Source: Nanobdellota archaeon
Lineage (GTDB): Archaea; Nanobdellota; Nanobdellia; Woesearchaeales; GW2011-AR4
Direction of reading: 5' to 3'
Assembly: GCA_038046385.1 (NCBI GenBank)
Contig: JBBSWH010000006.1
Span: 96,001 to 160,000, forward strand
DNA: 64,000 nucleotides
Shown here in pieces: positions 28,597-52,559 of the stretch. Each line of letters begins with the position of its first letter. Position 1 is the first letter of the stretch. The translations under genes and the position numbers were made by a program. The notes under the pieces are model-generated. The model had not been told where the DNA came from and searched no databases. It saw nothing but the letters and a program-made list of their open reading frames with translations.

Positions 28597-29556
28597 TTAT
28601 CGGCCCTGCTTTGATTCGAGGCTTGTGTATGCAATTGTCGGTGCATCGAGTGATATCTTTTTCTGCCTCATTGGATCTGTTAAAGTGATTAATCTGTTGT
28701 CTGCGCCTGCGATTGAGCCTTTGACAAGAATATACTGTGATTTTACAAGACCATATCCGATGAATCCGCCCTTGACGTTTATTTCTTCAGGCTTTGTTCC
28801 TATTTTTACAAGCCATTTGTTGTATTCTGTTCTTAAGTGGTTGCCCATTTTTCCTGCATGAGCTGTTCTCCACATTATGTGGCCCTGCCCTCTCCATGCT
28901 CCCAATGATCCTGGATTTCTTCTGGATTTTTCGGATTTGTGATGCCTTAAAGTGACTCCAAATCTTCGCATTGCTCCCTGGAATCCTTTTCCTCTTGTGA
29001 CTGCGTGAATGTCTGTTAACTGCCCTTCCTTGAATACTTCATTTACTCTGATTTCTTTTCCCAACTTTTCTTTTGCGAATATTAGTTGCTGCTCTTTTGT
29101 TCCGCCTATAGCTATCTCAATTGTTTCCGGCTTCTTTTTTCCCAAGCCAGAAAGTTTTGGCTGTGTGTAGCATGATAATCTTATAGAATCAAAATCACTT
29201 GCTTCTTTTCCTTTCTTCTTTGAAGCCAGAATTTTTCTTTCCATTTCTTTGTCAACAGACTCTGCTAAAACATGAGAAACAATTTGTTTATTTTTATAGA
29301 AAACGATTGAAGCGACTTTGATTGGGGGAACTTCGATGACTGTGACCGGACAGAAAATATCTGCCCCTTTTGTTAAAGATGTTTGCCGGTTGTCGGTAAT
29401 CAGAAGATGAGTCATGCCAACCTTATAGCCTGCGAAACCTAAAGGTTTTGCTTCTTTGCTTTTTGTCCAGTTTCTTATTCTTGCGTGCCTGTTCCTAGCT
29501 ATAGATCTAGGGTGAAACTGCATGCTTCCTGCTCTTGGCTGTCTTGTTCTTGGCAT
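28597..29556 (-). CDS. rpl3: 50S ribosomal protein L3
   Basis: PR.GS, GFAGYKVGMTH, T.GKGFQG, AG.MG.H.RTEYNK, KGSI.G. Confidence 0.96.
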   Translation of the reverse strand: MPRTRQPRAGSMQFHPRSIARNRHARIRNWTKSKEAKPLGFAGYKVGMTHLLITDNRQTSLTKGADIFCPVTVIEVPPIKVASIVFYKNKQIVSHVLAESVDKEMERKILASKKKGKEASDFDSIRLSCYTQPKLSGLGKKKPETIEIAIGGTKEQQLIFAKEKLGKEIRVNEVFKEGQLTDIHAVTRGKGFQGAMRRFGVTLRHHKSEKSRRNPGSLGAWRGQGHIMWRTAHAGKMGNHLRTEYNKWLVKIGTKPEEINVKGGFIGYGLVKSQYILVKGSIAGADNRLITLTDPMRQKKISLDAPTIAYTSLESKQGR

Positions 29557-29731
29557 TGTGTTTGAGACAGATTGGTCTGTCTATTGCGCTTATGTGTGTA
29601 AAAAAGCCTTTTGGTGGCCGCTTTTTGTAGAATCCAGTCATTAAAACTGTACTGAAAAAGCAGTCTTTTCAGGCTCGTTTATGGTTTGTGTTTAAACAAC
29701 ACAAAGTCTTTCCTAGGAAAGAAGTTCGGTT

Positions 29732-29776
29732 TATAAAGGTATCGTTGACCTTTTGAGAGGTCAACGGACCTTTATA
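29732..29776. promoter_or_regulatory. Inverted repeat overlapping the TATA box of the r-protein operon
   Basis: TATAAAGGT-ATCGTTGACCT..AGGTCAACGG-ACCTTTATA; TATA-like boxes face outward on both ends. Confidence 0.55.
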
Positions 29777-29849
29777 TTTGAAAATCTATGATTTTCTTCA
29801 TATAAAGGTTTTGGATAGATTACTTAGGTGTTTTGCTAGTATATACTAT

Positions 29850-29922
29850 AATAATATAGGCTGTCGTCGCTTCGCTCCTCGTCGGACACCCCGTAAGGGA
29901 CAACCCCCGTCCGACCAGCCAT
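29850..29922 (+). repeat. 73-bp GC-rich structured element family C, copy 1
   Basis: 72/73 identical to the reverse complement of 47101-47173; GGCTG/CAGCC and GTCGGAC/GTCCGAC stems. Confidence 0.9.
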
Positions 29923-29933
29923 TACGGACGCTG

Positions 29934-29966
29934 ACCACTGGACATCTTCGCATGAAATATATAAAG
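29934..29966 (+). promoter_or_regulatory. R-box copy 1 (ACCACTGGACAT-N7-BRE/TATA)
   Basis: ACCACTGGACATCTTCGCATGAAATATATAAAG; ATG 55 nt from the motif start. Confidence 0.8.
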
Positions 29967-29988
29967 GGATTCTTACATCAGGAAACAG

Positions 29989-30285
29989 ATGATTGTCAAA
30001 AAGAGTGACTACATAAAGTATAGCCATATAATGGTAAAGAAGCTATACAAATCTACATGTTTTGGAAAAGGATCCATGTACGAGGATAATGTGATCTCAG
30101 GACTGCCTGACGCCAAGATAGCAAAACAAGTCCTTAACGCTTTGGTGAAGCAGGAGATATGCGTCCGCAAGAAAAAGGAGCATGGCTGGAAATATTATCT
30201 CAACATGGACAGGCTAGACAAGATAAAAGAAATTGCAAAAGAAACGAGCATAAACACTATACTGATGCTCATATTAGGTATATGA
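29989..30285 (+). CDS. Small basic hypothetical protein (probable wHTH), paralog 1
   Basis: Paralog of 31098-31403 (shared CFGKGS and KKKEHGWKYYLNMDRLDKIKEI). Confidence 0.75.
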   Translation: MIVKKSDYIKYSHIMVKKLYKSTCFGKGSMYEDNVISGLPDAKIAKQVLNALVKQEICVRKKKEHGWKYYLNMDRLDKIKEIAKETSINTILMLILGI

Positions 30286-30327
30286 AAATATCCCTTATGG
30301 TATAAATAGAAAACCTTATATAATACA

Positions 30328-30705
30328 ATGGAATACACAGAAGATATGGAAAGATCAGTATTTTTGGAAAAGGAAGGAGATACTCCAAAGAATAGGTTAC
30401 TGGATTTTTTTGTTGTTTACTCCGATTTTGACTATTCTTTGAAAGATATAGCCAAACTTTCCAAAGTTAGTTACCCTTACATCAAGACGCACAAGAAAGG
30501 CCTTCTCAAGAACAAATGGATAGTCTTGACAAGAAATGTAGGGAAGGCGCAGATGTACAAATTAAATTTGAAAAGCAAGGTCGTGAAGAAATTCATAGAG
30601 TACTACTGGGCTGTTGTTGACGAAGCTGTGGAAGAGGAGCTTGGGATTAAGAACAAACATAGAAGTTATGCACCTCAGGTTGCTGTTTCTGCTAAGAATT
30701 TGTAG
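30328..30705 (+). CDS. Winged-helix DNA-binding protein, paralog 1
   Basis: SVFL..EGDTPKNR..F....DYS.KDIA..SKV.Y, TR.VGKA.MYKLN; paralog of 31510-31869. Confidence 0.8.
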   Translation: MEYTEDMERSVFLEKEGDTPKNRLLDFFVVYSDFDYSLKDIAKLSKVSYPYIKTHKKGLLKNKWIVLTRNVGKAQMYKLNLKSKVVKKFIEYYWAVVDEAVEEELGIKNKHRSYAPQVAVSAKNL

Positions 30706-30710
30706 ATTAT

Positions 30711-30743
30711 ACCACTGGACATGCTCGCGTGAAATATTTAAAG
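30711..30743 (+). promoter_or_regulatory. R-box copy 2
   Basis: ACCACTGGACATGCTCGCGTGAAATATTTAAAG, 5 nt after the upstream stop codon. Confidence 0.8.
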
Positions 30744-30811
30744 GGTATTTACAATTCTATTAAGATGAAAAGCAAAAAATTTATATATCAAAGATATATA
30801 TCAGTGATATA

Positions 30812-31090
30812 TCTCTGTTGTTGATGTGGTTGAAGCTCTTACAAACAGTTCTATTCCAAGAAGGTACTGGTCAGATTTAAAATCACAGCTTAAAGAGCAG
30901 GGTTTTGAGTTGTACGAAAAAATTGTACAACTGAAATTGCCGGCAGAAGATGGAAAATTCTATGAAACAGATTGCGCTAATACAGAATCAATGTTCAGAA
31001 TTGTTCAGTCTATCCCATCCAAGAAAGCAGAGCCTTTCAAGCTATGGCTGGCGCAAGTAGGATATGAAAGAGTGCAGGAGATAGAAAACT
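30812..31090 (+). pseudogene. Bro-N domain (phage antirepressor-like) gene fragment
   Basis: SVVDVVEALT..PRRYW..QLKLPAEDGKFYETDCAN..RIVQSIPSKKAEPFKLWLAQVGYER; 5' end missing, 3' end cut after EIEN. Confidence 0.75.
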
Positions 31091-31097
31091 TCTTAGA

Positions 31098-31403
31098 TTA
31101 TAACAGAAGTAATATTGGAATAATTGAATTATTTCCTTTTTCTTTTAGTATTTCTTTGATTTTATCTAATCTATCCATGTTTAAGTAGTATTTCCATCCG
31201 TGTTCTTTTTTCTTTTTGCCGCAGATGTTTTGTTTTACAAGTGCTTCCAGCACAGTCTCAACTTTGTCCAGATCTTCTTTTGATATTCCTGATTTTAAAA
31301 CATGGATGTAAGCAGAACCTTTTCCAAAACAGTTTTCATCAAAAAGCTTTTTTACTGTTGTTCTGCTTATTCTTATATACTCACTTTTCTTTACCTTGAC
31401 CAT
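31098..31403 (-). CDS. Small basic hypothetical protein, paralog 2 (inverted relative to its wHTH partner)
   Basis: Paralog of 29989-30285; start adjusted to MVKVKK. Confidence 0.75.
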   Translation of the reverse strand: MVKVKKSEYIRISRTTVKKLFDENCFGKGSAYIHVLKSGISKEDLDKVETVLEALVKQNICGKKKKEHGWKYYLNMDRLDKIKEILKEKGNNSIIPILLLL

Positions 31404-31509
31404 TGGAATGGCAATCACGAAATAATATATAAATATGTGGTCTGAATTTAGTCCCTTATGGGTCTAAATAGAAACCTTTAAATATTCATCATAATATACT
31501 ATCTTTACG

Positions 31510-31869
31510 ATGACAAAATCAGTATTTTTACAGGAAGAAGGCGACACGCCTAAAAACAGGATATGGAGTTTTTTAATAATTCATTCGGAATATGATTATT
31601 CAATGAAGGATATTGCACGATACTCAAAAGTAGGGTACACCACACTGAAAGGGATGTGGAAAGAATTCAATGGAAAAAAGATAGTAATTCAGACAAGATC
31701 TGTTGGAAAAGCAAAAATGTACAAACTCAACATGAAAAATCCTGTTGTAAGCAAATTCATAGACTACTATTGGGCTGTGGTTGAGTCTGTAGTTGAGAAA
31801 GGCCTTGATATTAAGGACAATCACTATAGTTCATCTCCAGGTGTGGCTGTTTCTGCTAGGAATGTTTAG
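31510..31869 (+). CDS. Winged-helix DNA-binding protein, paralog 2
   Basis: Paralog of 30328-30705, including the VAVSA(K/R)N tail. Confidence 0.8.
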   Translation: MTKSVFLQEEGDTPKNRIWSFLIIHSEYDYSMKDIARYSKVGYTTLKGMWKEFNGKKIVIQTRSVGKAKMYKLNMKNPVVSKFIDYYWAVVESVVEKGLDIKDNHYSSSPGVAVSARNV

Positions 31870-31872
31870 GAT

Positions 31873-31884
31873 ACCACTGGACAT
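31873..31884 (+). promoter_or_regulatory. R-box copy 3 (core intact, TATA part degenerate)
   Basis: ACCACTGGACAT 3 nt after the wHTH stop; downstream AAGGGTATGTACAA resembles copy 2. Confidence 0.7.
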
Positions 31885-31935
31885 TTATTGATGTGGTGTT
31901 TTGTCAAGGGTATGTACAAATTGTACCAATCATTT

Positions 31936-31982
31936 AGTTATCGACATTTTGTCGACAACTGAAACCGGCAGCTTCTGATGGG
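31936..31982 (+). pseudogene. Very short Bro-N remnant
   Basis: Translates LSTFCRQLKPAASDG, aligning with LYEKIVQLKLPAEDG and LSQIWVQLKLPAEDG of the other two copies. Confidence 0.55.
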
Positions 31983-31999
31983 TAGAAAACCCTACAAAT

Positions 32000-32032
32000 A
32001 CCACTGGACATCCTCGCGTGAAATATATAAAG
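32000..32032 (+). promoter_or_regulatory. R-box copy 4
   Basis: ACCACTGGACATCCTCGCGTGAAATATATAAAG; begins a ~114-bp block shared with copy 2. Confidence 0.8.
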
Positions 32033-32116
32033 GGATTCTGCAGTTCTATTATTATGAAAAGCAAAAAATTTATATATCAAAGGTATATATCAGTGATATA
32101 TCTTTGTTGGTGACAG

Positions 32117-32392
32117 ATGAGGATCACCTACAAAGGGAAGCCGATATTCCCAACCAGGACTGCGCTGGACGAGCTGGATGCTGTCGGAATTGACTTGCTT
32201 CAGGCAGCCGCTATACTGGAGCAGGGGTTTGAGATAAGAAAAAGATCCTCTAATATGATAGAAAGAGGAGTTCAAAAAGGAAAGAAAATAATAAATGTTG
32301 TTGGAGTGGACATGGGAGGCTACGTGAAGCTGATACATGCCGGCGCTTTTACATCCAGCAGCAAATTCAGGAGGCTTAAAGATGGACTTTGA
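32117..32392 (+). CDS. Putative RelE/BrnT/DUF4258-like toxin
   Basis: 91-aa ORF with GGTGA SD; T..A..E helix then beta strands ending KLIHAG; overlaps the start of a Zn-ribbon/AbrB gene. Confidence 0.5.
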   Translation: MRITYKGKPIFPTRTALDELDAVGIDLLQAAAILEQGFEIRKRSSNMIERGVQKGKKIINVVGVDMGGYVKLIHAGAFTSSSKFRRLKDGL

Positions 32393-32702
32393 CAATATGA
32401 AGATGAGATGTGAATGCAGCGGAAGGATGGAGAAGATATCCACAGAGTGGAAAGGCATACCTGTAAGGGGATGGAGATGCACAAAATGCAAAGAAGAAGT
32501 TTTGAATCCTTTGGATGCGCAGAAGGCGCTTGAGATGGAAAAAGCAAGAAAGAAGAATCTGCTTACTGTCAAATTAAGGAAAGTTGGCAAGAGCAGTGTT
32601 GTAACAGTCCCATTACCGATAATGGAAATGGAATCTCTCAAGGACGGCCAGAAGATGGAATGGAAAGTAGAGTCAGGCAAACTCATTCTGATGCCGGTTT
32701 AG
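32382..32702 (+). CDS. Zn-ribbon + AbrB-domain putative antitoxin
   Basis: CECSG...C.KC.E zinc ribbon followed by KLRKVGKSSVVTVP AbrB motif. Confidence 0.7.
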   Translation: MDFDNMKMRCECSGRMEKISTEWKGIPVRGWRCTKCKEEVLNPLDAQKALEMEKARKKNLLTVKLRKVGKSSVVTVPLPIMEMESLKDGQKMEWKVESGKLILMPV

Positions 32703-32713
32703 AATGAAATTAT

Positions 32714-32746
32714 ACCACTGGACATCTTCAGGTGAAATATTTAAAG
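32714..32746 (+). promoter_or_regulatory. R-box copy 5
   Basis: ACCACTGGACATCTTCAGGTGAAATATTTAAAG; ATG of Bro-N 54 nt from the motif start. Confidence 0.8.
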
Positions 32747-32767
32747 GAGAACTGCATATACAATCTT

Positions 32768-33112
32768 ATGAATGAAGAAAACGCTTTGGTTGTCTTTCAG
32801 GACAAGAAAATAAGGAGGATATGGCACAATAATGAGTGGTATTTCTCGGTTGTTGATATAATTGAAGCCCTAACCGACAGCCCAACTCCTAGACAGTATT
32901 GGGGCAAAGTAAAAGACAGGGAATTTGTAAAACTTGGGTTGTCCCAAATTTGGGTACAACTGAAATTGCCGGCAGAAGATGGAAAATTCTATGAAACAGA
33001 TTGCGCTAATACAGAATCAATGTTCAGAATTGTTCAGTCTATCCCATCCAAGAAAGCAGAGCCTTTCAAGCTATGGCTGGCGCAAGTAGGATATGAAATG
33101 GTTTATGTTTGA
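32768..33112 (+). CDS. Bro-N domain protein, C-terminally truncated
   Basis: FQDKKIRRIW...WYFSVVDII.ALT, QSIPSKKAEPFKLWLAQVGYE, then an abrupt stop. Confidence 0.8.
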   Translation: MNEENALVVFQDKKIRRIWHNNEWYFSVVDIIEALTDSPTPRQYWGKVKDREFVKLGLSQIWVQLKLPAEDGKFYETDCANTESMFRIVQSIPSKKAEPFKLWLAQVGYEMVYV

Positions 33113-33134
33113 TTGATCTGAAATTATTCTTCTG

Positions 33135-33674
33135 TTATTTTTTGCCGATTTTTTCTCCACCTGTAAGGATTAAGGAAATTTTTCCGACAAATTTCACAGC
33201 ATTATCATAAATCTCACTGAGCCTTCTTTCGGTGTATGTCTTAATTGCAGAATATCTTGCAATATAACTTTCTGTTTTTGCATCTTCAAAATATTTCACA
33301 TATTCATCTTCAAAAATTTTGTAGGATTGGCTCAAAAGCTCCAAATCCTCTTTTTCTATTTCTCCCGGCACAAGCAAATGCCCCAATGCTATTTGGGCAG
33401 AGTCGTGATCTTTTACCTCATAGCCTTTGGAGAGGATAGCTGCTTTTGCAGCATACAGCATTGAATAATAGGAAATTGTAATTGCCCAATAATCCCAATA
33501 TATCTTTTTGGGCTGGTCTTTGTTTGGCTGCAATTCTTTAGCATGCTTTGCTATAAGCAGGCTGTTTTCTGCTTTTTCCAGAAATAATTTTATTTTAAAC
33601 GACTGGCCGGATTTGACTATTCTATTTTCCCTCAAAAATTCCGCAAACTGCTTTTTGTAATCTTCCTTACCCAT
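33135..33674 (-). CDS. HEPN domain protein
   Basis: FLEKAENSL..A, W.....YYSMLYAAKAAILSKG...KDH. Confidence 0.8.
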   Translation of the reverse strand: MGKEDYKKQFAEFLRENRIVKSGQSFKIKLFLEKAENSLLIAKHAKELQPNKDQPKKIYWDYWAITISYYSMLYAAKAAILSKGYEVKDHDSAQIALGHLLVPGEIEKEDLELLSQSYKIFEDEYVKYFEDAKTESYIARYSAIKTYTERRLSEIYDNAVKFVGKISLILTGGEKIGKK

Positions 33675-34233
33675 TTAGCACCAGCTCCCAGAACTTTTCA
33701 GGATTATTTAAGATTATGTGGTTAGCTAACACCTGTTTTCCCACGTTTTCTTCTTTTTCTTTCATCATCTGGTTAAATTCTTTTTCTGTTATGAATATTG
33801 GGTTTATTTTTTTCCTGAACATCATCTCATATCTGGAAAAAGACAACGACCTGCTTCCATCTTTGTTTATTATCATCAGGTCTACGTCGCTTTTTTCATT
33901 TTCTGTTTTCTTCGCATAGCTCCCAAACAGGATTACTATATCATTTGACTCTATTTCAGATGCTATTTTTGAGATTAACGGTGTTTTTTTTAAGAATTCT
34001 TTTTTTTCTTCTTCAGATGATATTGCCAGATATGGCTTGATTATTGGGATGATGTTCAATTCTATTAAAATTGCTTTTCCTGCTTTTTCTTTTGTGATTA
34101 AGCCAGACATCTTGCTGATTGTCCTGTGGAACGTTGCATAAGGAATACGGATTAAATTGCTTAATTCATGCATTGTGAACAATTTTCCAATATTCTTTCC
34201 CAGATAATTTATTATTTTTAACTTATTATCCAT
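33667..34233 (-). CDS. wHTH + minimal nucleotidyltransferase (MNT)
   Basis: ILFGSYAK......SDVDLMII; overlaps the HEPN gene. Confidence 0.88.
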   Translation of the reverse strand: MDNKLKIINYLGKNIGKLFTMHELSNLIRIPYATFHRTISKMSGLITKEKAGKAILIELNIIPIIKPYLAISSEEEKKEFLKKTPLISKIASEIESNDIVILFGSYAKKTENEKSDVDLMIINKDGSRSLSFSRYEMMFRKKINPIFITEKEFNQMMKEKEENVGKQVLANHIILNNPEKFWELVLNG

Positions 34234-34280
34234 TTTTAGATAATATTATCCATATTTGATATATAAAGTTATCGGTTGAT

Positions 34281-34313
34281 ACCACTGGACATCCCCGCGT
34301 GAAGTTTATAAAG
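34281..34313 (+). promoter_or_regulatory. R-box copy 6
   Basis: ACCACTGGACATCCCCGCGTGAAGTTTATAAAG. Confidence 0.8.
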
Positions 34314-34342
34314 GAGCTGTCCCTTACTATATCTAACCAGTT

Positions 34343-34380
34343 AAAGTACGAAAAGTTTATAAATACGTAAAACGTACTTT
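34343..34380 (+). promoter_or_regulatory. AbrB-PIN operon promoter with flanking operator-like inverted repeat
   Basis: AAAGTACG...CGTACTTT bracketing GAAAAGTTTATAAATA. Confidence 0.6.
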
Positions 34381-34383
34381 GAT

Positions 34384-34653
34384 ATGGTGATTATAATGAG
34401 GATGGAAACAGCTAAAATGTCAGAAAGGGGCCAGATAATAATCCCAAAGGAGATAAGGGAAGAAGTCGGAGCTTCAACAGATTCTATCTTTGCAGTCAGT
34501 ACTCTTGATAAAGATACTATTGTGATGAGGAAGATTGACCGGGATGCCTTGGTTGAAGAATTCAGGCGCATAAGAAGCAGGACAAAAAAGATGTCTCCAG
34601 CCCAGATTGAGGCAGAGATACATGCATACAGAAAAGAGAAGAGTAGTTCTTGA
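34384..34653 (+). CDS. AbrB/MazE-family antitoxin
   Basis: KMSERGQIIIPKEIREEVG. Confidence 0.88.
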   Translation: MVIIMRMETAKMSERGQIIIPKEIREEVGASTDSIFAVSTLDKDTIVMRKIDRDALVEEFRRIRSRTKKMSPAQIEAEIHAYRKEKSSS

Positions 34654-35029
34654 TACCAATATTGTAATATCGGCATTTATCTCTCCATTTGGGGCTGCAG
34701 CGCAGATATTTGAGATGTTTTTGGAAGGCAATATCATAAATTATACTTCTGAAGAGATACTCCAAGAGGCAGAAGAGGTTATTCACAGGCTAGAATTTAC
34801 TGAGTATATTGCTGATAAAAAATTCATGATTGATAATCTTAGAAAGTTATCATTGATTATAAATGTAACATCAAATGAAATGATTGTTAGGGAAGACCCT
34901 GCAGATGATAAAATTGTAAATTGCGCTCTTGATGCCGGAGCAGATATTGTATCCTGGGACAATCATCTTCTTAAGCTGAAGAAGTTTAGGAATGTTAAGA
35001 TAATTAGCCCGAAGGAGTTTCTTTTATGA
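34622..35029 (+). CDS. PIN-domain (VapC-like) toxin
   Basis: VVLDTNIVISA, DPADDKIVNCA, IVSWD.HLL. Confidence 0.9.
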   Translation: MHTEKRRVVLDTNIVISAFISPFGAAAQIFEMFLEGNIINYTSEEILQEAEEVIHRLEFTEYIADKKFMIDNLRKLSLIINVTSNEMIVREDPADDKIVNCALDAGADIVSWDNHLLKLKKFRNVKIISPKEFLL

Positions 35030-35097
35030 AAATAAAGGATATTTCACTTTCTCAAAGGCCAAGGGAGAGGATGAAGAAGGTTAATTTTTTATATTAA
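35026..35097 (+). pseudogene. radC: RadC (UPF0758) N-terminal fragment
   Basis: Manual translation MKIKDISLSQRPRERMKK matches the RadC N-terminal RPRE motif; cut at the DUF2075 gene end. Confidence 0.65.
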
Positions 35098-36967
35098 ATT
35101 TGTCTAATCTTTCTTGTATATAATTACTCAAATTTTTATCGCAGCAATAAACATAACACCCTTTTTGCCCCCTAGTCATTAAAGTTCTATAAGTATTTTT
35201 TATAATTTCATCTGCAATTTTATTTGCTTTATCTTGATTTTCTTTTGCTATCCTTTTAATTCCTTTTAGCGACTGGTCTGTTTTTGCACGTTTTGTATAA
35301 TCAGTTATAATCTTTCCATTTTCATATCTTAAATCCAATCCTATGATTATTCCTACATAATCAAACTCCAATCCTTGAGAGGTGTGAATACACCCTATTT
35401 CGTTTATAGATTCTTTATCTATTGCCCAAGTTGTTGTGTTACCTAAATTCCAACTCATTGAAAAATTGAATTCTTTAATGTTTATGTCATGAACTGTACT
35501 TTTATTTTTACCTTCCATATTCCAATCCCAACAATATCCTGCCAATAATCTAGATTTATTATTTATATTATTTTTTTCTATAATAATATTTTTTAGCTTA
35601 TTTGGGTCATCAACAACTTTAAATTCATACTCTTTTTCAAATCCATCTGAGTTAGCAGTTTCTCGTATTCCTAACAAATCATCTAACCATGCTAAGTATC
35701 CGTCTGATCCATTACATCTAAACTGGGAATTTAATTCAAGAATTTTAACCTCAGCATCAAACAAAGAAGTGTATTTTATTATTTCTGATTTTCTTCCTAT
35801 ATCAAAAATATCTACTTTTTGCCCTTCGTCAATAAAAAATACACTAAACTTTGAAGCATTAATAATTTCTTTTATTTGATTCTCTCCTAAATTTTTGAAT
35901 AATCCTGACTTTTCATTCAGCCTGTGTGCTTCATCTACAACTAAGGCATCAAAAACGTTTTTATCACAATCGTGAAAGAATCCAGAACTCTTGAATAAAT
36001 TATCTATATGGGATTTAGTGGTTGTTCCTCTTAATTTAGAAGCATAAACATTTCTAGGTGCAGAATTCTTTGATATATAATGCACAACCATATCCTTACT
36101 AGTTAATTTGACTAATAAATTAACAGCCAAAACTGATTTTCCAGTTCCTGGTCCGCCTTCAACTATCATCACTCTTTTTTTGTGGTCATTAAAGGACTTA
36201 AGTGCCATAGACATTACTTCTTCATAGACTACTTTTTGGTCATCTATCAGGGTAAACTCATCTTTTCCTTTCAATAAATTTACTAATGAATCTTGTAGGG
36301 TTTTTGATGGCTTTAACCTACCATGATCTATCTGATACAGGGAATATTTATTGTCACCATATTTTATGAATTTAGAAATAAATTTTCTAAGTTTCAAAAC
36401 TTCTCCTTTTGTGTATATTGGGGCTTTTTCAATATAATAAGAATATATTGGATCTTCAATTTCTGGATTTTTCTCCCTATCGAGATTATGTAAGAAAGCG
36501 CAAGGGTAAACCCCAATATTCTCTTTTTGAACGTTTTCATTAAAGTCTTTGATTAGATTATGATAAGACCAAACTTGATAGGATGGGTGTGTTGATTCGT
36601 GAAGTCCCTTTCCCAATGGAGTCATAACTATTGCGTCTTTCCCTTCTACTTTGTGTACTTCATCCCATCTTTTTAATTCTATTATAACTACTAGATTTGA
36701 TTTGTTTTCATCTTTACCAGAAATAATAAAATCAACTCTTTTACTGGTTGATGGGATACGAAATTCAATAGCTATCCCACAACTATTTGGGATTTCTTCT
36801 GCTTGAACCACTTTATACATATATTGCATAGAATCTGACCAAGAACTTATCTCTTTTTTGGATATGTTTCCTATTTTTTGTTGATAATTTGAATATATCT
36901 CATCTGATATTGTATCATTTAACACAGAGCTACAAAATTCACTTTTTGTTCCTTCATATACTAGCAT
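35081..36967 (-). CDS. DUF2075 (Schlafen group 3-like) helicase with N-terminal nuclease-like domain
   Basis: IEF..P...KRVD..I...ELK.W, GGPGTGKS, VDEAHRL, SQFRC.GS, IHTSQGLEFDY, YRTLMTRG. Confidence 0.88.
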   Translation of the reverse strand: MLVYEGTKSEFCSSVLNDTISDEIYSNYQQKIGNISKKEISSWSDSMQYMYKVVQAEEIPNSCGIAIEFRIPSTSKRVDFIISGKDENKSNLVVIIELKRWDEVHKVEGKDAIVMTPLGKGLHESTHPSYQVWSYHNLIKDFNENVQKENIGVYPCAFLHNLDREKNPEIEDPIYSYYIEKAPIYTKGEVLKLRKFISKFIKYGDNKYSLYQIDHGRLKPSKTLQDSLVNLLKGKDEFTLIDDQKVVYEEVMSMALKSFNDHKKRVMIVEGGPGTGKSVLAVNLLVKLTSKDMVVHYISKNSAPRNVYASKLRGTTTKSHIDNLFKSSGFFHDCDKNVFDALVVDEAHRLNEKSGLFKNLGENQIKEIINASKFSVFFIDEGQKVDIFDIGRKSEIIKYTSLFDAEVKILELNSQFRCNGSDGYLAWLDDLLGIRETANSDGFEKEYEFKVVDDPNKLKNIIIEKNNINNKSRLLAGYCWDWNMEGKNKSTVHDINIKEFNFSMSWNLGNTTTWAIDKESINEIGCIHTSQGLEFDYVGIIIGLDLRYENGKIITDYTKRAKTDQSLKGIKRIAKENQDKANKIADEIIKNTYRTLMTRGQKGCYVYCCDKNLSNYIQERLDKFNIKN

Positions 36968-36969
36968 AG

Positions 36970-37326
36970 TTATAGTTCATTATATTTTTTATTTGATCCT
37001 TTTGATTTTTCTATTGGGTATTTTTCAGAATTCTTCTTTAATTTTTTATTTAATTCCTCACTTAAATTGATATCGTACTTTTGTGCAATTCTTAAAACAA
37101 AATAAAAAATATCACTTAACTCTTCAGAAATCTCGTTTTTCTTTGTTTTGATTATGTGTTCAGATTCTTCGTTAGATTTAAATCTAAAATGTTCTAATAA
37201 TTCAGATGATTCAGTAATAATCCCTATTGCTAAATCTTTAGGGTTATGAAATTTATCCCAATCTCTATCAACACAAAATTTTTTAACTTTGTTTTTCAAG
37301 TCATCTACTGTGGTTTTTGAATCCAT
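36970..37326 (-). CDS. MazG-like nucleotide pyrophosphohydrolase
   Basis: RDW.KFHNPKDLA...E..ELLE.F, EELSD, N.EKYP. Confidence 0.9.
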   Translation of the reverse strand: MDSKTTVDDLKNKVKKFCVDRDWDKFHNPKDLAIGIITESSELLEHFRFKSNEESEHIIKTKKNEISEELSDIFYFVLRIAQKYDINLSEELNKKLKKNSEKYPIEKSKGSNKKYNEL

Positions 37327-37369
37327 CTCTAGTAATTTCTTTATGTTTCTTAATAAACTTTACCCACCT

Positions 37370-38002
37370 TCACCCACACCACTTACACTCTTCTGCTGCA
37401 TCTGGAATGTTATTGGAAAGGACTTTAAGAGCATGAGATAATATTCTTTCAGCATTCGTAACATCTATCTTCATCTTGACTAAATCGGTGTTAAACAATA
37501 CAGTTCCATCAGCGTTGACTTTAGAAGGATGATAAAACAATAAATAAGCGTAATCATGAGTCTTATACCCATTCTTCCTAAGTAAAAAATTGTAAATGTC
37601 AAGCTGATTCTGGTAATGGGCAGCTGTGTCGTCTTTCAGGGGAAAGCCGCGCGTTTTATAATCCAAAACAATGAACTTGCCGCTTTTAACAAGAATGTTG
37701 TCAACTGCCCCGCGTAACACATTACCAGAAGAATCAGTATATGAAATGCCTTTGAAGTTGCTTCTCCAAATAGCAAGCAAAGAAATATCATCAAACAACT
37801 TAACATTCTTCAGCTTAAGAGAAGGAGGCAATCCTTTCCCGATAAAAGAGTCAAAATACTCTTTCAAGACTTTATCCATGCCTGAAGGAAGAGAAGGAAA
37901 TATGCTATCAGGCCTTTTAATGTTTTTATTAAAATGAAGCCAAAAACACCTAGGACAATCTGAAAGAAGCGATAATGATGAAGGGGAAAATTTGTAGGTC
38001 AT
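37370..38002 (-). CDS. PD-(D/E)XK nuclease (RecB/Cas4-like)
   Basis: SPSS....CPRC, GAVD..., LDYKT, QL.IY, C-terminal CKWC. Confidence 0.82.
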   Translation of the reverse strand: MTYKFSPSSLSLLSDCPRCFWLHFNKNIKRPDSIFPSLPSGMDKVLKEYFDSFIGKGLPPSLKLKNVKLFDDISLLAIWRSNFKGISYTDSSGNVLRGAVDNILVKSGKFIVLDYKTRGFPLKDDTAAHYQNQLDIYNFLLRKNGYKTHDYAYLLFYHPSKVNADGTVLFNTDLVKMKIDVTNAERILSHALKVLSNNIPDAAEECKWCG

Positions 38003-38865
38003 TTTATGTACCTTTTCATGAAAAACCTTACAAAATATTTTTGTTTTTCATTAATCTGGCTTGCTTCAAGGTTTTTATAGTATTCCATTCTGTCCTTGAA
38101 TTTAATATTAAGCATGGGGTATTCGTGCCTAATAAGCACATAATTTGCCAGTAACCTGCTTATTCTTCCGTTTCCATCAGAATATGGATGGATGGTAACA
38201 AACTTCAAATGGGACAAAGCGGCCAGTTCAACAGGGTTCATTCTTTTTTCATTCTTGGAATACCATCCAAAAAACTCCGCAAGCAGCTTAGGAACATCTT
38301 CCGGAGCAGGAAAAGAAGTTCTGCTGCCGGTTACTATTATCTTATGAATTCTTAATTTGCCGGCAATGTAATCTTTGGATTCCCTAAAAATCATTTCGTG
38401 CCATTTATTGACAATGCTTAGGCTTAATTTACCTTTAAATTCCATCATTGAGTAAAATGCCTTCCGATAGCCTTCGGTTTCCCTTACTTCGTTCAGGGGC
38501 TTGTTTTTTGGTGTTGTATTATGCAAAAACAACCCTTTTGTGTCATCCAAAGATAAGCTGCTTCCCTCTATCTTGCTTGAATTGTAAATGAAATGAACCA
38601 GAAAATCCTCAATCAGTTTTTGCTTTTCTTCTGCAGGCAAATTGTTTTGCTCTTTATCATATTTTGATTTTATTTCTTTGATTTTGCTGAATGTTATTAA
38701 TTTTAGGTGTTTATATTCCATATCTTCTTTGATTTCTTCTATATTATCGGGAATTTTTTTGCCGAGATACTTGCTTAGTGTTTTGGTTTTTTTGCCTATC
38801 TTGAAATTGTGCTCAACATAGAAATATTTTTTCCCACCAACTGTTCTTTTTTTTATTGCTGCCAT
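37999..38865 (-). CDS. Fic-family protein (class II, with autoinhibitory motif)
   Basis: HPYSDGNGRISR catalytic motif and upstream SSKIEG. Confidence 0.9.
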   Translation of the reverse strand: MAAIKKRTVGGKKYFYVEHNFKIGKKTKTLSKYLGKKIPDNIEEIKEDMEYKHLKLITFSKIKEIKSKYDKEQNNLPAEEKQKLIEDFLVHFIYNSSKIEGSSLSLDDTKGLFLHNTTPKNKPLNEVRETEGYRKAFYSMMEFKGKLSLSIVNKWHEMIFRESKDYIAGKLRIHKIIVTGSRTSFPAPEDVPKLLAEFFGWYSKNEKRMNPVELAALSHLKFVTIHPYSDGNGRISRLLANYVLIRHEYPMLNIKFKDRMEYYKNLEASQINEKQKYFVRFFMKRYIK

Positions 38866-38963
38866 AAGATTAGTTATACCCACTTTCTTATAAATTTTGT
38901 GTTTTTTGTTGAAAAGTGGGGATAAGAATAGAGGGAATTTTTACAAGGGATTGAATAAATGGT

Positions 38964-39506
38964 TTACCCGAATTTTGACAATATCTGACGGCCTATTTTT
39001 GAAATGTACTCTGCAGCTTCTTTGCTGCTTCCTTTAGAAGTAATTTGAATGAGGTATTCGTCTTTGGTTATGTAAAGAGTGTAATAGTAAATGTTTGGAT
39101 CATTGTACTGGCCGCCATAATCGTTTTCGTTGTTTAAATAAAATCTGCTCTGGTCCCCGTAATCATTCACACTGATTAATCCTTCAACACTGCGGTAGTG
39201 CTGGGAAGAATATTGGTATGTTCCGTTTAGATCATTTAGATTTGTAAATTTCTGTAATTGAATAATCACTTCAGTATCATTTAAACTATTAATGGTGTAG
39301 TCACAGAAGCTGTATTGCGCCAGCGGTGAAAATTCGTTGGTTGGGTATTCCTCTGTCAGGCAATCTGTTCCGTTGTTTTTCATTCCAAGCTGCTGAAGGT
39401 CTTGTGCATCAAGCAGCAGCTCCTGGGTTCCTAGTATAGTTGTCTTTGCTGTTGAGCATCCTCCGATAAGCAATAAGAAAATTGTTAAAATTATAGCTGG
39501 TTTCAC
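38964..39506 (-). CDS. Putative lipoprotein
   Basis: Signal peptide with lipobox-like LIGGC. Confidence 0.65.
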   Translation of the reverse strand: MKPAIILTIFLLLIGGCSTAKTTILGTQELLLDAQDLQQLGMKNNGTDCLTEEYPTNEFSPLAQYSFCDYTINSLNDTEVIIQLQKFTNLNDLNGTYQYSSQHYRSVEGLISVNDYGDQSRFYLNNENDYGGQYNDPNIYYYTLYITKDEYLIQITSKGSSKEAAEYISKIGRQILSKFG

Positions 39507-39682
39507 AATATCACCTTTATTTTAGAGGGGTGTTGTTGTTTTTAAATATTATTAAAAAAATGTCAGTTTTTTATTGTAAATTTGTGGGTGTAAAAAATCT
39601 TTTTTTAAGCTAGGGGTTGTGCTGAGTGGCAAGTCTGTTTTTTTCGTATTTTTCTTTATTTTCCTACTTATTTGGTTAGCTG

Positions 39683-39831
39683 ACCCTGTTGTTTCGTGTG
39701 GAAACGTGTTTCTTTCTTCTTTTCTTTTTTTCTTTCTTCTTCTTCTTTTCTATATAGAAATAATATATATAATATATAATAATAAGAATAAAATATATAA
39801 TAATAAAGGGTTCCATAGGAAATCAAGGGGT
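39683..39831. other. Chromosomal replication origin (oriC): two inverted ORBs around an AT-rich DUE
   Basis: Minus-strand GTTTCCACACGAAACAACAGGGT (39683-39705) and plus-strand GTTCCATAGGAAATCAAGGGGT (39810-39831) flank an almost pure A/T tract directly upstream of cdc6. Confidence 0.8.
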
Positions 39832-39881
39832 GTCCTAAGTAAAAGCAATCTTTAAATACAACCTGTAAACCTCTGGTTCTT

Positions 39882-41087
39882 ATGGAGAGGGGGTTGGAAA
39901 CATTCTTTGAGGTTTTCCTCAAAAAAGACAGTGTATTTTTTGACAAGAAAGCGCTACAGACATCTTTCGCGCCAAACATAATACTTCATAGGGAAGACCA
40001 AATCAAGCAGATAGCTAATATTCTGGCTCCTTCATTAAAGGGAGACCGGCCATCAAATGTTTTTGTCTATGGAAAGACAGGATCAGGAAAAACACTTACC
40101 ATAAAACACACAACACAAAAACTAGCAGAGGTAGCAGAAAAAGAGCAAGTTCCGTTAAAAATAATATACATCAACTGCAAGCTAAAGCGCGGAACAGACA
40201 CAGAATATAGGTTAATAGCACAGTTGGCAAGAGAATTGGGAAAAGCAATCCCACCAACAGGTTTGCCAACAGAAGAGGTTTACAGAATATTTCTTAAGGC
40301 AATCAACAAAGAAAAAAGAAATTACATTCTAGTACTAGACGAAATTGACCAGTTAGTCAATAAAATAGGAGATTCTGTTTTATACAATCTTACAAGGATG
40401 AATGAGGAAAATACAGAATCACAAATATCAATCATTGGAATATCAAACGACGTAACATTTGTAGATGCTTTAGACCCAAGAGTAAGGTCCTCAATGTCAG
40501 AAGAGGAAATTGTTTTTCCACCGTACAATGCGATGCAAATCCAGGCAATTTTAAGGCAGAGAACAGATATTGCATTCAACAAAGAAACAATAGAGGCTGG
40601 TGTTATAGAAAAATGCGCAGCATACGCAGCAAGAGACCATGGAGATGCACGCAGAGCTTTAGAATTAATGAGGGTATCGGGCGAAATTGCAGACAGAAAG
40701 AATGAAAAGAAAATTACTGTAACCCATATTGATGAAGCTGAAGATAAGATAGACAGGGACAGGATAGTTGACATTGTGGCATCGCAGCCGAAGCAATACC
40801 AGTTAGTTCTGCAATCTATTCTTTCCTTGCAGCCAGAAAGAAAAAACAGCATTTTCACAGGGGAAATTTACGAGCTGTACAAGTCGCTGTGCAAGAAAAC
40901 AAACACAACAGTCTTGACACAAAGAAGAATATCAGATATTATTTCAGAGTTTGACATGCTTGGAATTGTTAACGCAAAAGTTATCTCAAAGGGAAGATAC
41001 GGAAGAACGAGGGATATTTCAGTGGAGATCCCGGAAGCAGCTTTGAAGAGAATAAAAACAATACTTTTAGACACATTAAACATCTAA
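39882..41087 (+). CDS. cdc6: Orc1/Cdc6 replication initiator
   Basis: HRE.QI, YGKTGSGKT, VLDEID, F.PY, GDARRAL, GRYGRT wHTH. Confidence 0.96.
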   Translation: MERGLETFFEVFLKKDSVFFDKKALQTSFAPNIILHREDQIKQIANILAPSLKGDRPSNVFVYGKTGSGKTLTIKHTTQKLAEVAEKEQVPLKIIYINCKLKRGTDTEYRLIAQLARELGKAIPPTGLPTEEVYRIFLKAINKEKRNYILVLDEIDQLVNKIGDSVLYNLTRMNEENTESQISIIGISNDVTFVDALDPRVRSSMSEEEIVFPPYNAMQIQAILRQRTDIAFNKETIEAGVIEKCAAYAARDHGDARRALELMRVSGEIADRKNEKKITVTHIDEAEDKIDRDRIVDIVASQPKQYQLVLQSILSLQPERKNSIFTGEIYELYKSLCKKTNTTVLTQRRISDIISEFDMLGIVNAKVISKGRYGRTRDISVEIPEAALKRIKTILLDTLNI

Positions 41088-47100: not shown

Positions 47101-47173
47101 ATGGCTGGTCGGACGGGGGTTGTCCCTTACGGGGTGTCCGACGAGGAGCGTAGCGACGACAGCCTATATTATT
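47101..47173 (-). repeat. 73-bp structured element family C, copy 2 (inverted)
   Basis: One mismatch to 29850-29922. Confidence 0.9.
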
Positions 47174-47263
47174 GTTGTCTCTAATACCTCCAGATAAAAG
47201 ATACTCAACAACTTACCTAAGTTATTCACAAAATATATAAATAAAACAACAAAGAAAACAACC

Positions 47264-48756: not shown

Positions 48757-50775
48757 TCATATTCTGCTTATTGAGCCGCGTTTAGGTTCAAATATGTCAC
48801 CAGAACGCTTTAGCCTTTCAAGAGCTTCTTCTATTTTATCTTCATCCAATCCCTTGTTTCTTGCTTCCTGCACCACTTCTTCTATCGGAATTGATTTTCC
48901 GTGCTTGACTTCAAGCTCTGCAACAACTTCCTTGACAATCATGATATGGCTTCTTTGGGATGCGCCGACTCCGGTTGCAATACGGTCGATATCAATCTTG
49001 CCGGTTTCCTTGTCGAATCCAACTTGCATCAGGCAATAGTCAAGCATCTCGATTGCTTTCTTGGCATCTTTTCTTGTAACTCTTGGATCTAACCTTGATC
49101 TTGCAGAAGCTTCGCTTAACCTTACAAGCGCTTCTAACTGTCTTGGTGATATTGGGACTGTCTTTACGCTGCCTTCCCCGCCGCCTCTTCTCATCTTCAA
49201 ATAAAATTCTTTTATTTCTTCAAGAGCACCATCAGTTAACTGAGGATGGCAATGCTGCCTTGCATAGCCTACAAATTTCTTCAGCATGTTTGTGTCTATT
49301 TCCGGCTCAATCAAATCCGGCTTCTGGTGCAAACTCAGAATATGCTTTGCCAATTTCTCGTCTCTGACTTCTTCCGGCAGGTCTTTTATCGGGAATATCA
49401 AATCGAACCTGTTGATTAATGTCGGCGGCAAATCTATTTGTTCTGATATCAGCCCATATGGGTCAAATCTTCCAAATTTTGGATTTGCTGCTGCAAGAAC
49501 TGTTGTACGCGCAATTAAAGTTGCCTGGATGTTTGCTTTTGAAATGCTGACTGTTTGATTTTCAAGAGCTTCGTGCATTGCAGCTCTATCTTCATTGCTC
49601 ATTTTGTCCATCTCGTCTATGCAGATTAAACCGTCGCTGGAAAGAACCATCGCTCCTGCTTCAAGCGCCCATCCGTTAAGAAATTCATCTTTAACTACAG
49701 CTGCAGTCAAACCTGCGCCGCTAACTCCCTTACCGGAAACATAACGTCCTTTTGGCGCAAACTGGACTATTCTTTTCAGAAGCGCTGACTTTCCACTTCC
49801 AGGATCACCAATCAAAAGAATGTGCATGTCACCTCTGCTGACAACCTTGTCGTTTCTTGTTTTTCTTACTCCACCCATCAGCTGAAGCAAAAGGCCTTCT
49901 TTTATTTTTTCATATCCAAAAATAGAAGGGGCGATTGAATTTATTAGCTTCTCATATCCTCTTGGATCGTTTGCTATTGCAAGAATTTCTTTTTCCTCTT
50001 CCGGAGATATGTTGATTTCATAGAATGTATCCTGGGTAGGCTTTACGTAGTTTGCCTCAATCATCAAATCAGACCTTGTCGAGCGGCTTCCGCTTTTTGA
50101 GATTATCGGGACTTCTTTTATCACTCCAATTGCTTCAACCCTGCTTCCAGGCGCTGTTCTTTTTTCGCTTAACGGAGAAACAAGGTCATTTGTCAAAAGC
50201 ACGTTCATTCTTTTTGGCTGCTCGCCGCCTTCAAGATTTTCAGATGCCTCTTCCAAGACAATTCCCTGTGCGTCAACCATCTCCTTATCAAGCATTACGA
50301 ATTTTCCTTTACGGCCGCAGCCGCATCTTGACGGCTCTTTGAAGGTTCCTTCTAATTGCAAAACATTCATTATGTTGCCGCACATCGGGCATTCAAATCT
50401 TGCAGAAGTTGTCTGCGGGCGTACATCGGATTTTTGCCTTACCAATCCCTGAACAAAAATAAGCCTTCCAATGTGATGGCTTCTGATATCTCTGATTTTT
50501 ACTTCCTGGCTTAACGGAATGTTTTCAAATCTTACCTTGAAATTTCCAAGATTTTCAATATCAAACTGGCCTATGGATTTTTCAATTGCCTTTATTGTTT
50601 CTTCAGGCTTATCCAGCAATTCTACAGCTAGGTCAGGATCAAACTTTGACAGTTCAGCAAAATCAACAAGGAGAAACTGGTGACCTTTTCTTACATTTTC
50701 AAGAAGCGTGCTATAGTAATTTGCGTCAATAAACTCCTGAAACCTTTTGATTTGGTCGACAACATTGATTTCCAT
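48757..50775 (-). CDS. mcm: MCM replicative helicase
   Basis: Zn finger, GDPGSGKS, CIDEMDKM, AAANP, RQLEAL.RL.EA. Confidence 0.97.
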   Translation of the reverse strand: MEINVVDQIKRFQEFIDANYYSTLLENVRKGHQFLLVDFAELSKFDPDLAVELLDKPEETIKAIEKSIGQFDIENLGNFKVRFENIPLSQEVKIRDIRSHHIGRLIFVQGLVRQKSDVRPQTTSARFECPMCGNIMNVLQLEGTFKEPSRCGCGRKGKFVMLDKEMVDAQGIVLEEASENLEGGEQPKRMNVLLTNDLVSPLSEKRTAPGSRVEAIGVIKEVPIISKSGSRSTRSDLMIEANYVKPTQDTFYEINISPEEEKEILAIANDPRGYEKLINSIAPSIFGYEKIKEGLLLQLMGGVRKTRNDKVVSRGDMHILLIGDPGSGKSALLKRIVQFAPKGRYVSGKGVSGAGLTAAVVKDEFLNGWALEAGAMVLSSDGLICIDEMDKMSNEDRAAMHEALENQTVSISKANIQATLIARTTVLAAANPKFGRFDPYGLISEQIDLPPTLINRFDLIFPIKDLPEEVRDEKLAKHILSLHQKPDLIEPEIDTNMLKKFVGYARQHCHPQLTDGALEEIKEFYLKMRRGGGEGSVKTVPISPRQLEALVRLSEASARSRLDPRVTRKDAKKAIEMLDYCLMQVGFDKETGKIDIDRIATGVGASQRSHIMIVKEVVAELEVKHGKSIPIEEVVQEARNKGLDEDKIEEALERLKRSGDIFEPKRGSISRI

Positions 50776-50797: not shown

Positions 50798-50830
50798 CTT
50801 TATATATTTCATGTGAGCATGTCCAGTGGT
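50798..50830 (-). promoter_or_regulatory. R-box copy 7 = mcm promoter
   Basis: Reverse complement reads ACCACTGGACATGCTCACATGAAATATATAAAG; mcm ATG 55 nt from the motif start. Confidence 0.8.
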
Positions 50831-52440: not shown

Positions 52441-52559
52441 CTCCTATATAGGAAAACAAAAGCTTTTAATACAAGATATTGAAGAATACCCTATAATATT
52501 ATATTAGTAATGTTATTCATTGAAGTATACTGGTGGGTTGTATCTTGAAAAGAGGGATA

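Follow-up and report, generated by a model that had tools for sequence, protein, structure and literature searches.

A repeated 33-bp element is probably a composite promoter of genome-maintenance and accessory genes in a Woesearchaeales archaeon

What kind of DNA element is repeated both between the small accessory genes of an archaeal island and in front of mcm? A 33-bp element with this distribution occurs in a 64,000-nt stretch (positions 96,001 to 160,000 of contig JBBSWH010000006.1, assembly GCA_038046385.1; hereafter the window) of a Nanobdellota archaeon of the order Woesearchaeales. A first-pass annotation, made from the sequence alone, proposed that it is either the combined operator and promoter of a regulon for replication or DNA damage, captured by accessory genes, or a promoter-bearing recombination site. 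The element was analyzed in the window, in the source genome (1.28 Mb, 85% complete) and in related genomes. The results support the first proposal, since the element is found genome-wide at a fixed distance from TATA, is conserved in the genus and spread through the order, and has replication and repair genes behind it.

Exact matching located the 12-mer core ACCACTGGACAT seven times in the window, against a chance expectation of 0.17 (sd 0.40, largest value 2), and none of 100 shuffled windows reached seven copies. A scan of the window with one mismatch allowed gave nothing beyond these seven. Six cores start on the plus strand, at 29934, 30711, 31873, 32000, 32714 and 34281, and the seventh lies on the minus strand at 50819-50830. 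The full 33-nt form, in which the core is followed by N7 and TGAARTWTWTAAAG, is present at five island sites and at the mcm copy, confirming the seven invariant cores, five full island copies and one core-only copy noted earlier. An independent metagenome contig (L311) is 100% identical to the window over 29501-30450. Scans of the window for Rfam families and for tRNAs found none.

Copy 1 (29934-29966), consisting of core, spacer and B recognition element (BRE)/TATA, stands ahead of a 98-aa gene without Pfam family (29989-30285; ATG at +55). Copy 2 (30711-30743) is followed by a 19-codon open reading frame (ORF) or leader and by a Bro-N gene lacking its 5' end (30826-31188), and the core-only copy (31873-31884) lies 3 nt past the stop codon of a 119-aa gene. 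Copy 3 (32000-32032) precedes a leader and a toxin-antitoxin (TA)-like pair, formed by a gene without Pfam family (32117-32392) and a MazE/AbrB-like gene (32382-32702). Copy 4 (32714-32746) stands ahead of a short Bro-N gene (32768-33112; ATG at +54), and copy 5 (34281-34313) is upstream of a pair of MazE-like (34384-34653) and PIN (34607-35029) genes. All of these are on the plus strand. Copy 7 (50798-50830, minus strand) is the mcm promoter, the MCM gene (48757-50775, minus strand) having its ATG at +55. The preceding ORFs of three copies end at 30705, 31869 and 32702, leaving gaps of 5, 3 and 11 nt to the core, in agreement with the 3-11 nt given by the first-pass annotation. Between the core-only copy and copy 3 lie 115 bp for which self-comparison showed no second occurrence in the genome; on this ground the idea that they are a repeated mobile element was rejected.

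An ATG falls 54-55 nt from the core start at 29934, 30711, 32000, 32714 and mcm, and is absent at 34281. Putative TATA-like boxes also lie 27-34 nt before the ATGs at 32117 and 34384 (27 nt for 34384). The motif-free TATA sites of the genome (n = 232) served as reference: the offset of the ATG peaks 30 nt after the TATA start (64 sites), and no conserved block is found upstream of TATA. In the element the TATA starts 24 nt past the core start, the core ending 12 nt before it at a fixed distance. Since the ATG follows the TATA start by 30 nt, an ATG at +54 has leaderless spacing, which places the core at about -54 to -43 from the start codon; the leaderless arrangement proposed for five copies is thus borne out by comparison with the 232 ordinary promoters. 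A weight matrix of 27 sites showed the TATA in one register, with the spacer bases C12, C15, G16, C17 and T19 conserved as well. A second core is present 7 nt upstream (CACTGGACACTGGACA) in 47 of 140 sites (reversed control, 1), and an inverted core within 60 nt upstream in none of the 140. The core is asymmetric except for CCAnTGG. The 33-bp element is therefore read here as probably a composite archaeal promoter, in which a 12-bp box, (A/G)(C/G)CACTGGACAT, stands 12 nt upstream of an ordinary BRE/TATA.

The source genome contains 19 exact and 8 one-mismatch copies of the 12-mer, and one copy of the reversed control. A TATA box comes exactly 12 nt after almost all of these 12-mer copies. The composite form CACTGGACA-N13-TWTWTAA has 23 sites, 17 of them outside the island and most of these single. 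The exact 12-mer was found in all 24 other genomes of the genus and in 3 of the 16 other-family genomes of the same draw; its reversed control was absent from all 41 genomes of that draw. Five genus genomes had 8-25 composite sites each (control, 0). The order was sampled with 121 genomes, one a family; 79 of them carried the composite, and the reversed control gave 0 in every one. One of the 121 (G152), an unpublished genome whose sequence is not used here, has no composite match and counts as one unit in the mcm, small-protein and paralogue tallies given below. The motif scan of the genome and its relatives proposed in the first-pass annotation thus shows an element that is present throughout the genome, retained across the genus and common in the order, and not peculiar to the island.

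Among IMG/VR viral contigs the CC variant had 0 matches and the general form 2, giving no sign, as far as sequence matches go, that catalogued viruses use the element. A metagenome scan returned 20 contigs with matches, none of which is a strain variant of the whole island. Divergent back-to-back pairs of elements, with core starts 59 nt apart, were seen on the metagenome contigs L309 (7317/7376), L315 (1074/1133) and L324 (208/267), which suggests a conserved divergent promoter pair.

The element was also found at the same position in front of orthologous genes. For mcm, the core lies within 110 nt upstream of the start in 21 of 26 evaluable genus loci, at 53-56 nt in 17 of them, and the flanks around the core have diverged between loci; in two of the five remaining loci DNA has been inserted in between and the core is found some 163 nt upstream. 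The gene of a Cas4/Dna2-like nuclease has the strict composite at 24 of 30 loci, nearly all at exactly 54 nt, and five further loci have the core with the spacing off by one (29/30 in total). At ribonucleotide reductase (RNR) genes the strict composite was found at 18 of 29 loci and a variant at 4 more (22/29), at 180-410 nt. A small protein of 80-110 aa without known family, encoded in 107 of the 121 order genomes, has the box upstream at 24 of 30 loci, often doubled, and is the most constant carrier across the order. The same box is therefore retained at mcm, the Cas4-like gene, RNR and the small protein while the flanks diverge.

To classify the genes behind the element, 141 non-redundant composite sites were drawn from 14 genomes and the first ORF of at least 60 aa was taken at each; such an ORF was present at 119 of them. 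By Pfam, LAGLIDADG_3 was the largest class (20/119), followed by PDDEXK_1 (7, of which 6 were Cas4), Bro-N (7) and Hef-type helicase domains (5). MCM, tyrosine recombinase (integrase) and RNR accounted for 4 each, RNase_H_2 for 3 and methyladenine glycosylase (Tag) for 2, and 10 first ORFs were of the small-protein family. Single cases were a radical-SAM/helix-hairpin-helix (HhH) protein, an NgoPII endonuclease and an Eco57I-type methylase; a UvrA-like N-terminus (to which Pfam assigned P-loop domains only) and a Dcm-type methylase were recognized by eye. In the source genome a Xer-like recombinase gene is also preceded by the element. As control, 68 leaderless promoters of the source genome that lack the motif were used. 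The first ORFs behind them belonged to housekeeping families, none with more than two members, and no element family was among the 25 commonest. Compared with this control, DNA-handling families dominate the 119 ORFs.

Distribution, fixed spacing, conservation at orthologues and functional bias downstream are direct observations, and on them we consider it likely that in this DPANN lineage of Woesearchaeota type the element marks out a regulon for genome maintenance. Judged by the element at their genes, its putative members are MCM, RNR, the Cas4/Dna2-like nuclease, the Hef-type helicase, the Xer recombinase and the small conserved protein, with UvrA, the Tag glycosylase, the RNase-H-fold protein and the radical-SAM/HhH protein as apparent members in some lineages. 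Selfish and defence genes (LAGLIDADG nucleases, Bro-N, TA pairs and restriction-modification genes) have the same promoter.

Several observations weigh against this interpretation. No ORF of at least 60 aa follows within 420 nt at 22 of the 141 sites, and some sites precede genes that by eye are not concerned with DNA (a Dxr-like, a PurC-like and a ribosomal-protein-like ORF). Only 3 of 29 mcm loci, plus 1 variant, had the box in other families of the order, where mcm mostly follows tbp directly, indicating that regulon membership varies by lineage. Several of the copies in the island arose by recent duplication, with 88-95% identity over 34-116 nt, and are therefore not independent; the conserved spacer bases could derive in part from shared descent. 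Finally, only position and gene content speak to the choice between damage and cell cycle and between activation and repression.

The duplicates lie in an accessory island at 29696-39682, between the rpl3 operon leader and the origin and orc1, with borders set by blastn: relatives match the sequence up to about 29695 and again from about 39683. In the source genome rpl3 and orc1 are about 10.3 kb apart, against 0.5-1.9 kb in all 11 genomes of the genus that have rpl3 and mcm on a single contig; the island is thus an insertion specific to the source genome, beside the replication origin. Its small proteins without Pfam family form two pairs (98/125 aa and 106/119 aa), and Pfam recognized Bro-N pieces, HEPN, nucleotidyltransferase and MazE-like/PIN genes. 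Further genes encode a Schlafen-type helicase, MazG-like, PD-(D/E)XK and Fic proteins and a 180-aa ORF. Both Bro-N genes (30826-31188 and 32768-33112) are fragments of 114-120 aa, full-length relatives elsewhere (contig C1 and L069) having 278-290 aa.

Self-comparison revealed how these modules are related. The segments 30709-30824 and 31998-32113 are 90% identical, 29934-29973 and 32000-32039 are 95% identical, and the two Bro-N pieces are 82% identical. The two modules of the 119/125-aa proteins are 67% identical, and their similarity ends exactly at the 3' end of the core at 31873. The promoter-plus-leader unit of the TA-like pair now heads the Bro-N gene without 5' end, from which we infer that the left crossover of a recombination used the shared promoter at this gene. 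Each island module would have brought or acquired its own copy of the element, and such a promoter copy per module makes the copies look like cassette delimiters. A similar four-copy array with Bro-N, the same small-protein pair and a nucleotidyltransferase/HEPN module is present in another genome (L069), and the similarity of a MazE-PIN homologue in metagenome contig L310 begins at the element.

Integron cassette arrays are likewise made of co-oriented short repeats between small accessory genes, and their cassettes are promoterless, with an attC fold and an integrase. The island resembles them in its co-oriented repeats between small accessory genes, and a site-specific recombination site that captures promoter-bearing modules would account for six co-oriented copies within 4.4 kb, three of them directly after a stop codon, for duplicated modules whose similarity sets in within 0-2 nt of the element or stops with the last base of the core, for the MazE-PIN module that starts at the element elsewhere, for the comparable array in L069 and for a Xer-like recombinase gene that is itself element-driven. 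We nevertheless regard such a site as very improbable. Most of the composite sites (17 of 23) lie outside the island and are mostly single, host genes are served too, and the positions at mcm, the Cas4-like gene, RNR and the small protein are orthologous across species. Neither inverted copies nor attC-like symmetry were found in 140 sites. The lack of a recombinase in the window, noted earlier, extends to its whole contig as far as tyrosine recombinases are concerned (PF00589, the only recombinase family searched), the three PF00589 genes of the genome being on contigs C1 and C11. Unlike integron cassettes, the modules have their own promoters, every copy but one showing a functional-looking in-register TATA and every full copy its own, and promoterless cassettes behind a common promoter were not found. 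The second proposal of the first-pass annotation, a promoter-bearing recombination site, accordingly found no support. Module boundaries at the element are expected because the element is the first functional part of each promoter; the repeated promoters do mark the ends of duplicated segments, ordinary homology between copies explains this equally well, and nothing appears to require a dedicated recombination system.

Two other explanations accept the promoter and dispute the regulon. If the box were an unregulated element of promoter strength or architecture, comparable to an UP element and marking constitutive promoters without regulator or signal, the rigid TATA spacing and the extra conserved spacer bases would follow, and no regulator has been identified. 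Such an element would be expected at the most highly expressed genes, but translation and envelope families are absent from the 25 commonest of the 119 ORFs, the genes behind the box are those of nucleases, helicases, MCM and RNR, and the doubled cores look like protein-binding sites, so that we consider this explanation improbable. It is quite improbable, too, that the element belongs primarily to selfish genes, as the promoter-leader cassette of homing endonucleases, with host genes such as mcm acquiring it secondarily and the regulon a by-product. LAGLIDADG genes are the largest class (20/119), six genes of this group share promoter and folded leader with unrelated upstream flanks, near-identical copies occur within genomes (one spacer variant, with at most 2 differing letters, at 9 of the 25 sites of genome G020), and the MCM, RNR and PolD of relatives have intein-like split matches. 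On the other hand, it is at single-copy host genes that the element is best conserved across the order, namely that of the small protein (24/30) and the Cas4-like and Hef-type genes with the ATG at +54, the element is nearly absent from catalogued viral contigs (0 and 2 matches), and even with a selfish origin the box would still need a host factor.

A promoter of a genome-maintenance regulon, the interpretation we prefer, raises the question of what reads the box. With a single gene each for TFB and TBP in the genome, the element is presumably not an alternative basal-factor promoter, and the box needs a reader of its own. In the excerpted text of two papers, archaeal activators typically bind just upstream of the BRE, and repressors usually overlap or follow the promoter (PMC5512572; PMC4158304). 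The box lies directly upstream of the BRE, its core ending 12 nt before the TATA at the 23 sites of this genome and in 79 of the 121 order genomes, which favours activation. A dedicated factor would bind the box and activate transcription by helping TBP/TFB; given this position, we hold such a factor to be somewhat more probable than not. Judging from gene content, there is about an even chance that DNA damage, replication stress or S phase provides the signal.

A second, conserved Orc1/Cdc6 paralogue is a possible binder, although we put this forward tentatively. It is encoded on contig C5 (356 aa), and almost all of the 121 order genomes have retained it. In six families an element-driven operon of 2-4 conserved micro-ORFs stands between the paralogue gene and a YrdC-like gene. 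At the start of the paralogue gene itself, the element lies 55 nt before in one of nine upstream regions and is absent from the other eight, and autoregulation of the paralogue was rejected on this count. The association between paralogue and element is suggestive and no more. The micro-ORFs beside the paralogue (L023:595-1512, minus strand; L279-L282; L285) encode 26-50 aa and are of types that end in ...EEGFMxGYL or read ..FIExLFxQxKELT...; the neighbouring gene was named YrdC/Sua5-like by eye. An Rfam search of the gaps beside the orc1 paralogue found no family.

The small protein, if autoregulated, is a less probable binder that we rate as unlikely; it is considered because its doubled site is the most conserved. 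In the source genome it has 98 aa (L025:1691-1984, plus strand), and its predicted model (predicted local distance difference test, pLDDT, 82.8) has four strands and a long helix. It has no sequence match in the PDB and no Pfam family, and Foldseek found nothing for the model at E 0.001 or better; the best VIA-align result (Z 5.5, to YbaB/EbfC-like chains) is not a convincing match. The 120 homologues listed, of 506, are all unnamed or hypothetical. The presence of neither the paralogue nor the small protein separates element-bearing from element-free genomes. A helix-turn-helix (HTH)-like family (by eye) of 154-177 aa without Pfam match is element-driven in three other families (L224:1553-2083, L238:1015-1476 and L240:1585-2055), with the ATG at +54/55 in two and at +86 as called in the third; it was dropped as general regulator, since tblastn found no homologue in the source genome.

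In the fullest version of this model, which as a whole we think rather unlikely, the Orc1/Cdc6 paralogue would read origin recognition box (ORB)-like boxes at -54 to -43 as the activator of a maintenance programme comprising MCM, RNR, the Hef-type helicase, the Cas4-like nuclease and UvrA. Endonucleases, Bro-N and TA/defence modules would be plugged into this programme, and the 33-bp repeats would act as homology patches by which the island modules are shuffled.

The closest functional parallel among bacteria is the SOS response, in which one short LexA box links repair genes (uvrA and others) with mobile elements, TA modules and recombinases. In SOS the selfish genes are thereby switched on along with the damage programme of the host. 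As in SOS, selfish genes share a box with host repair genes. A LexA box is a palindrome overlapping the promoter, where it serves as an operator for repression, whereas the element is asymmetric, has its place upstream of BRE/TATA and resembles an activator site.

Among archaea, the non-initiator Orc1-2 of Sulfolobales activates damage-response promoters through a DNA-damage-responsive element (DDRE), ANTTTC, at -23 to -55 from the ATG, according to the excerpted text of PMC6061795. The present case is similar in that a promoter motif is common to a gene set and a second Orc1/Cdc6 paralogue, with a putative binding role, is present. It differs in having CACTGGACAT at a fixed distance upstream of TATA, and not the ANTTTC given there, and in its genes: pili, DNA import and tfb3 in the regulon as excerpted, MCM, RNR and nucleases here. 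Sites directly upstream of BRE/TATA, the usual position for TBP/TFB recruitment, are also described for Ptr2, TFB-RF1, EarA and TrmBL1 (Thermococcales glycolytic motif, TGM) in the portions available of PMC4158304 and PMC5512572. The element shares this position with them; unlike these sites, which in those portions serve few operons and sugar metabolism, it is rigidly spaced, widespread in the order and found at DNA-handling genes.

The resemblance of the core to ORBs, pointed out in the first-pass annotation, is real. Pyrococcus ORBs contain TTTCCACTGGA (PMC1904270, in excerpt), and eight bases, CCACTGGA, are common to this ORB core and the element. In comparison with the ORB as excerpted, the element lacks the invariant TTCC...GAA ends, the G-string and the TTCC...GGAA dyad, and its copies are scattered over promoters instead of forming a cluster around an AT-rich unwinding region. 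The source genome has an origin-like intergenic region followed by orc1/cdc6 (together 39683-41087, plus strand; gene at 39882-41087), conserved in relatives. Its intergenic part (39683-39881) contains an AT-rich stretch at about 39750-39805 and an ORB-like TTCCATAGGAAATCAAGGGG near 39809. The box of this presumptive origin beside orc1 is TTCCATAGGAAA...GGGG, which differs from the element core, and no copy of the core was found in the origin-like region over 39506-39882.

To our knowledge, DPANN archaea are uncultured and their gene regulation is almost wholly obscure. In the literature, covered partially and without supplements, we found no description of the element nor of a relevant DPANN or Woesearchaeota promoter motif; an upstream box common to mcm, RNR and repair genes and widespread in the order is what is new here. 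A 12-bp box of fixed spacing that marks replication and repair genes would give a handle on an archaeal damage or cell-cycle programme outside Sulfolobales, together with a list of candidate members that includes a near-universal small protein without known family and conserved micro-proteins. Homing endonucleases, Bro-N and TA/defence modules would by this means tie their expression to host genome maintenance, as mobile elements do with bacterial SOS.

Some further features were observed in the course of this analysis. Six element-driven LAGLIDADG, HTH or zinc-finger genes (L003, L004, L006, L016, L022 and L024) share a folded leader of about 130-190 nt with unrelated upstream flanks, the element standing at about 1501 and the leader reaching to about 1690. 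The leader consists of a long hairpin and then a second hairpin before GGAGGT-ATG, with double changes at 11 of 41 predicted pairs. An Rfam search of the endonuclease leaders found no family, apart from two tRNAs and a sub-threshold tmRNA match. The MCM, RNR and PolD large subunit of many relatives give split matches in open frames of about 800-2,200 aa (for example L050, L053, L055-L057, L146-L149 and L349-L358), a pattern typical of inteins; the MCM of the source genome has no such split. The island has two short repeats at its left edge (29765-29813 and 29837-29922), one AT-rich and able to form a hairpin, the other GC-rich and about 85 nt long. Each has three more copies in the genome, one of these at 47101-47186 of the window, and they look like miniature inverted-repeat transposable elements (MITEs). 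Downstream of the replication gene cluster, the window carries at 52533-63213 three very large, cysteine-rich ORFs of 1,176, 403 and 1,981 aa, whose N-termini are by eye hydrophobic and signal-like.

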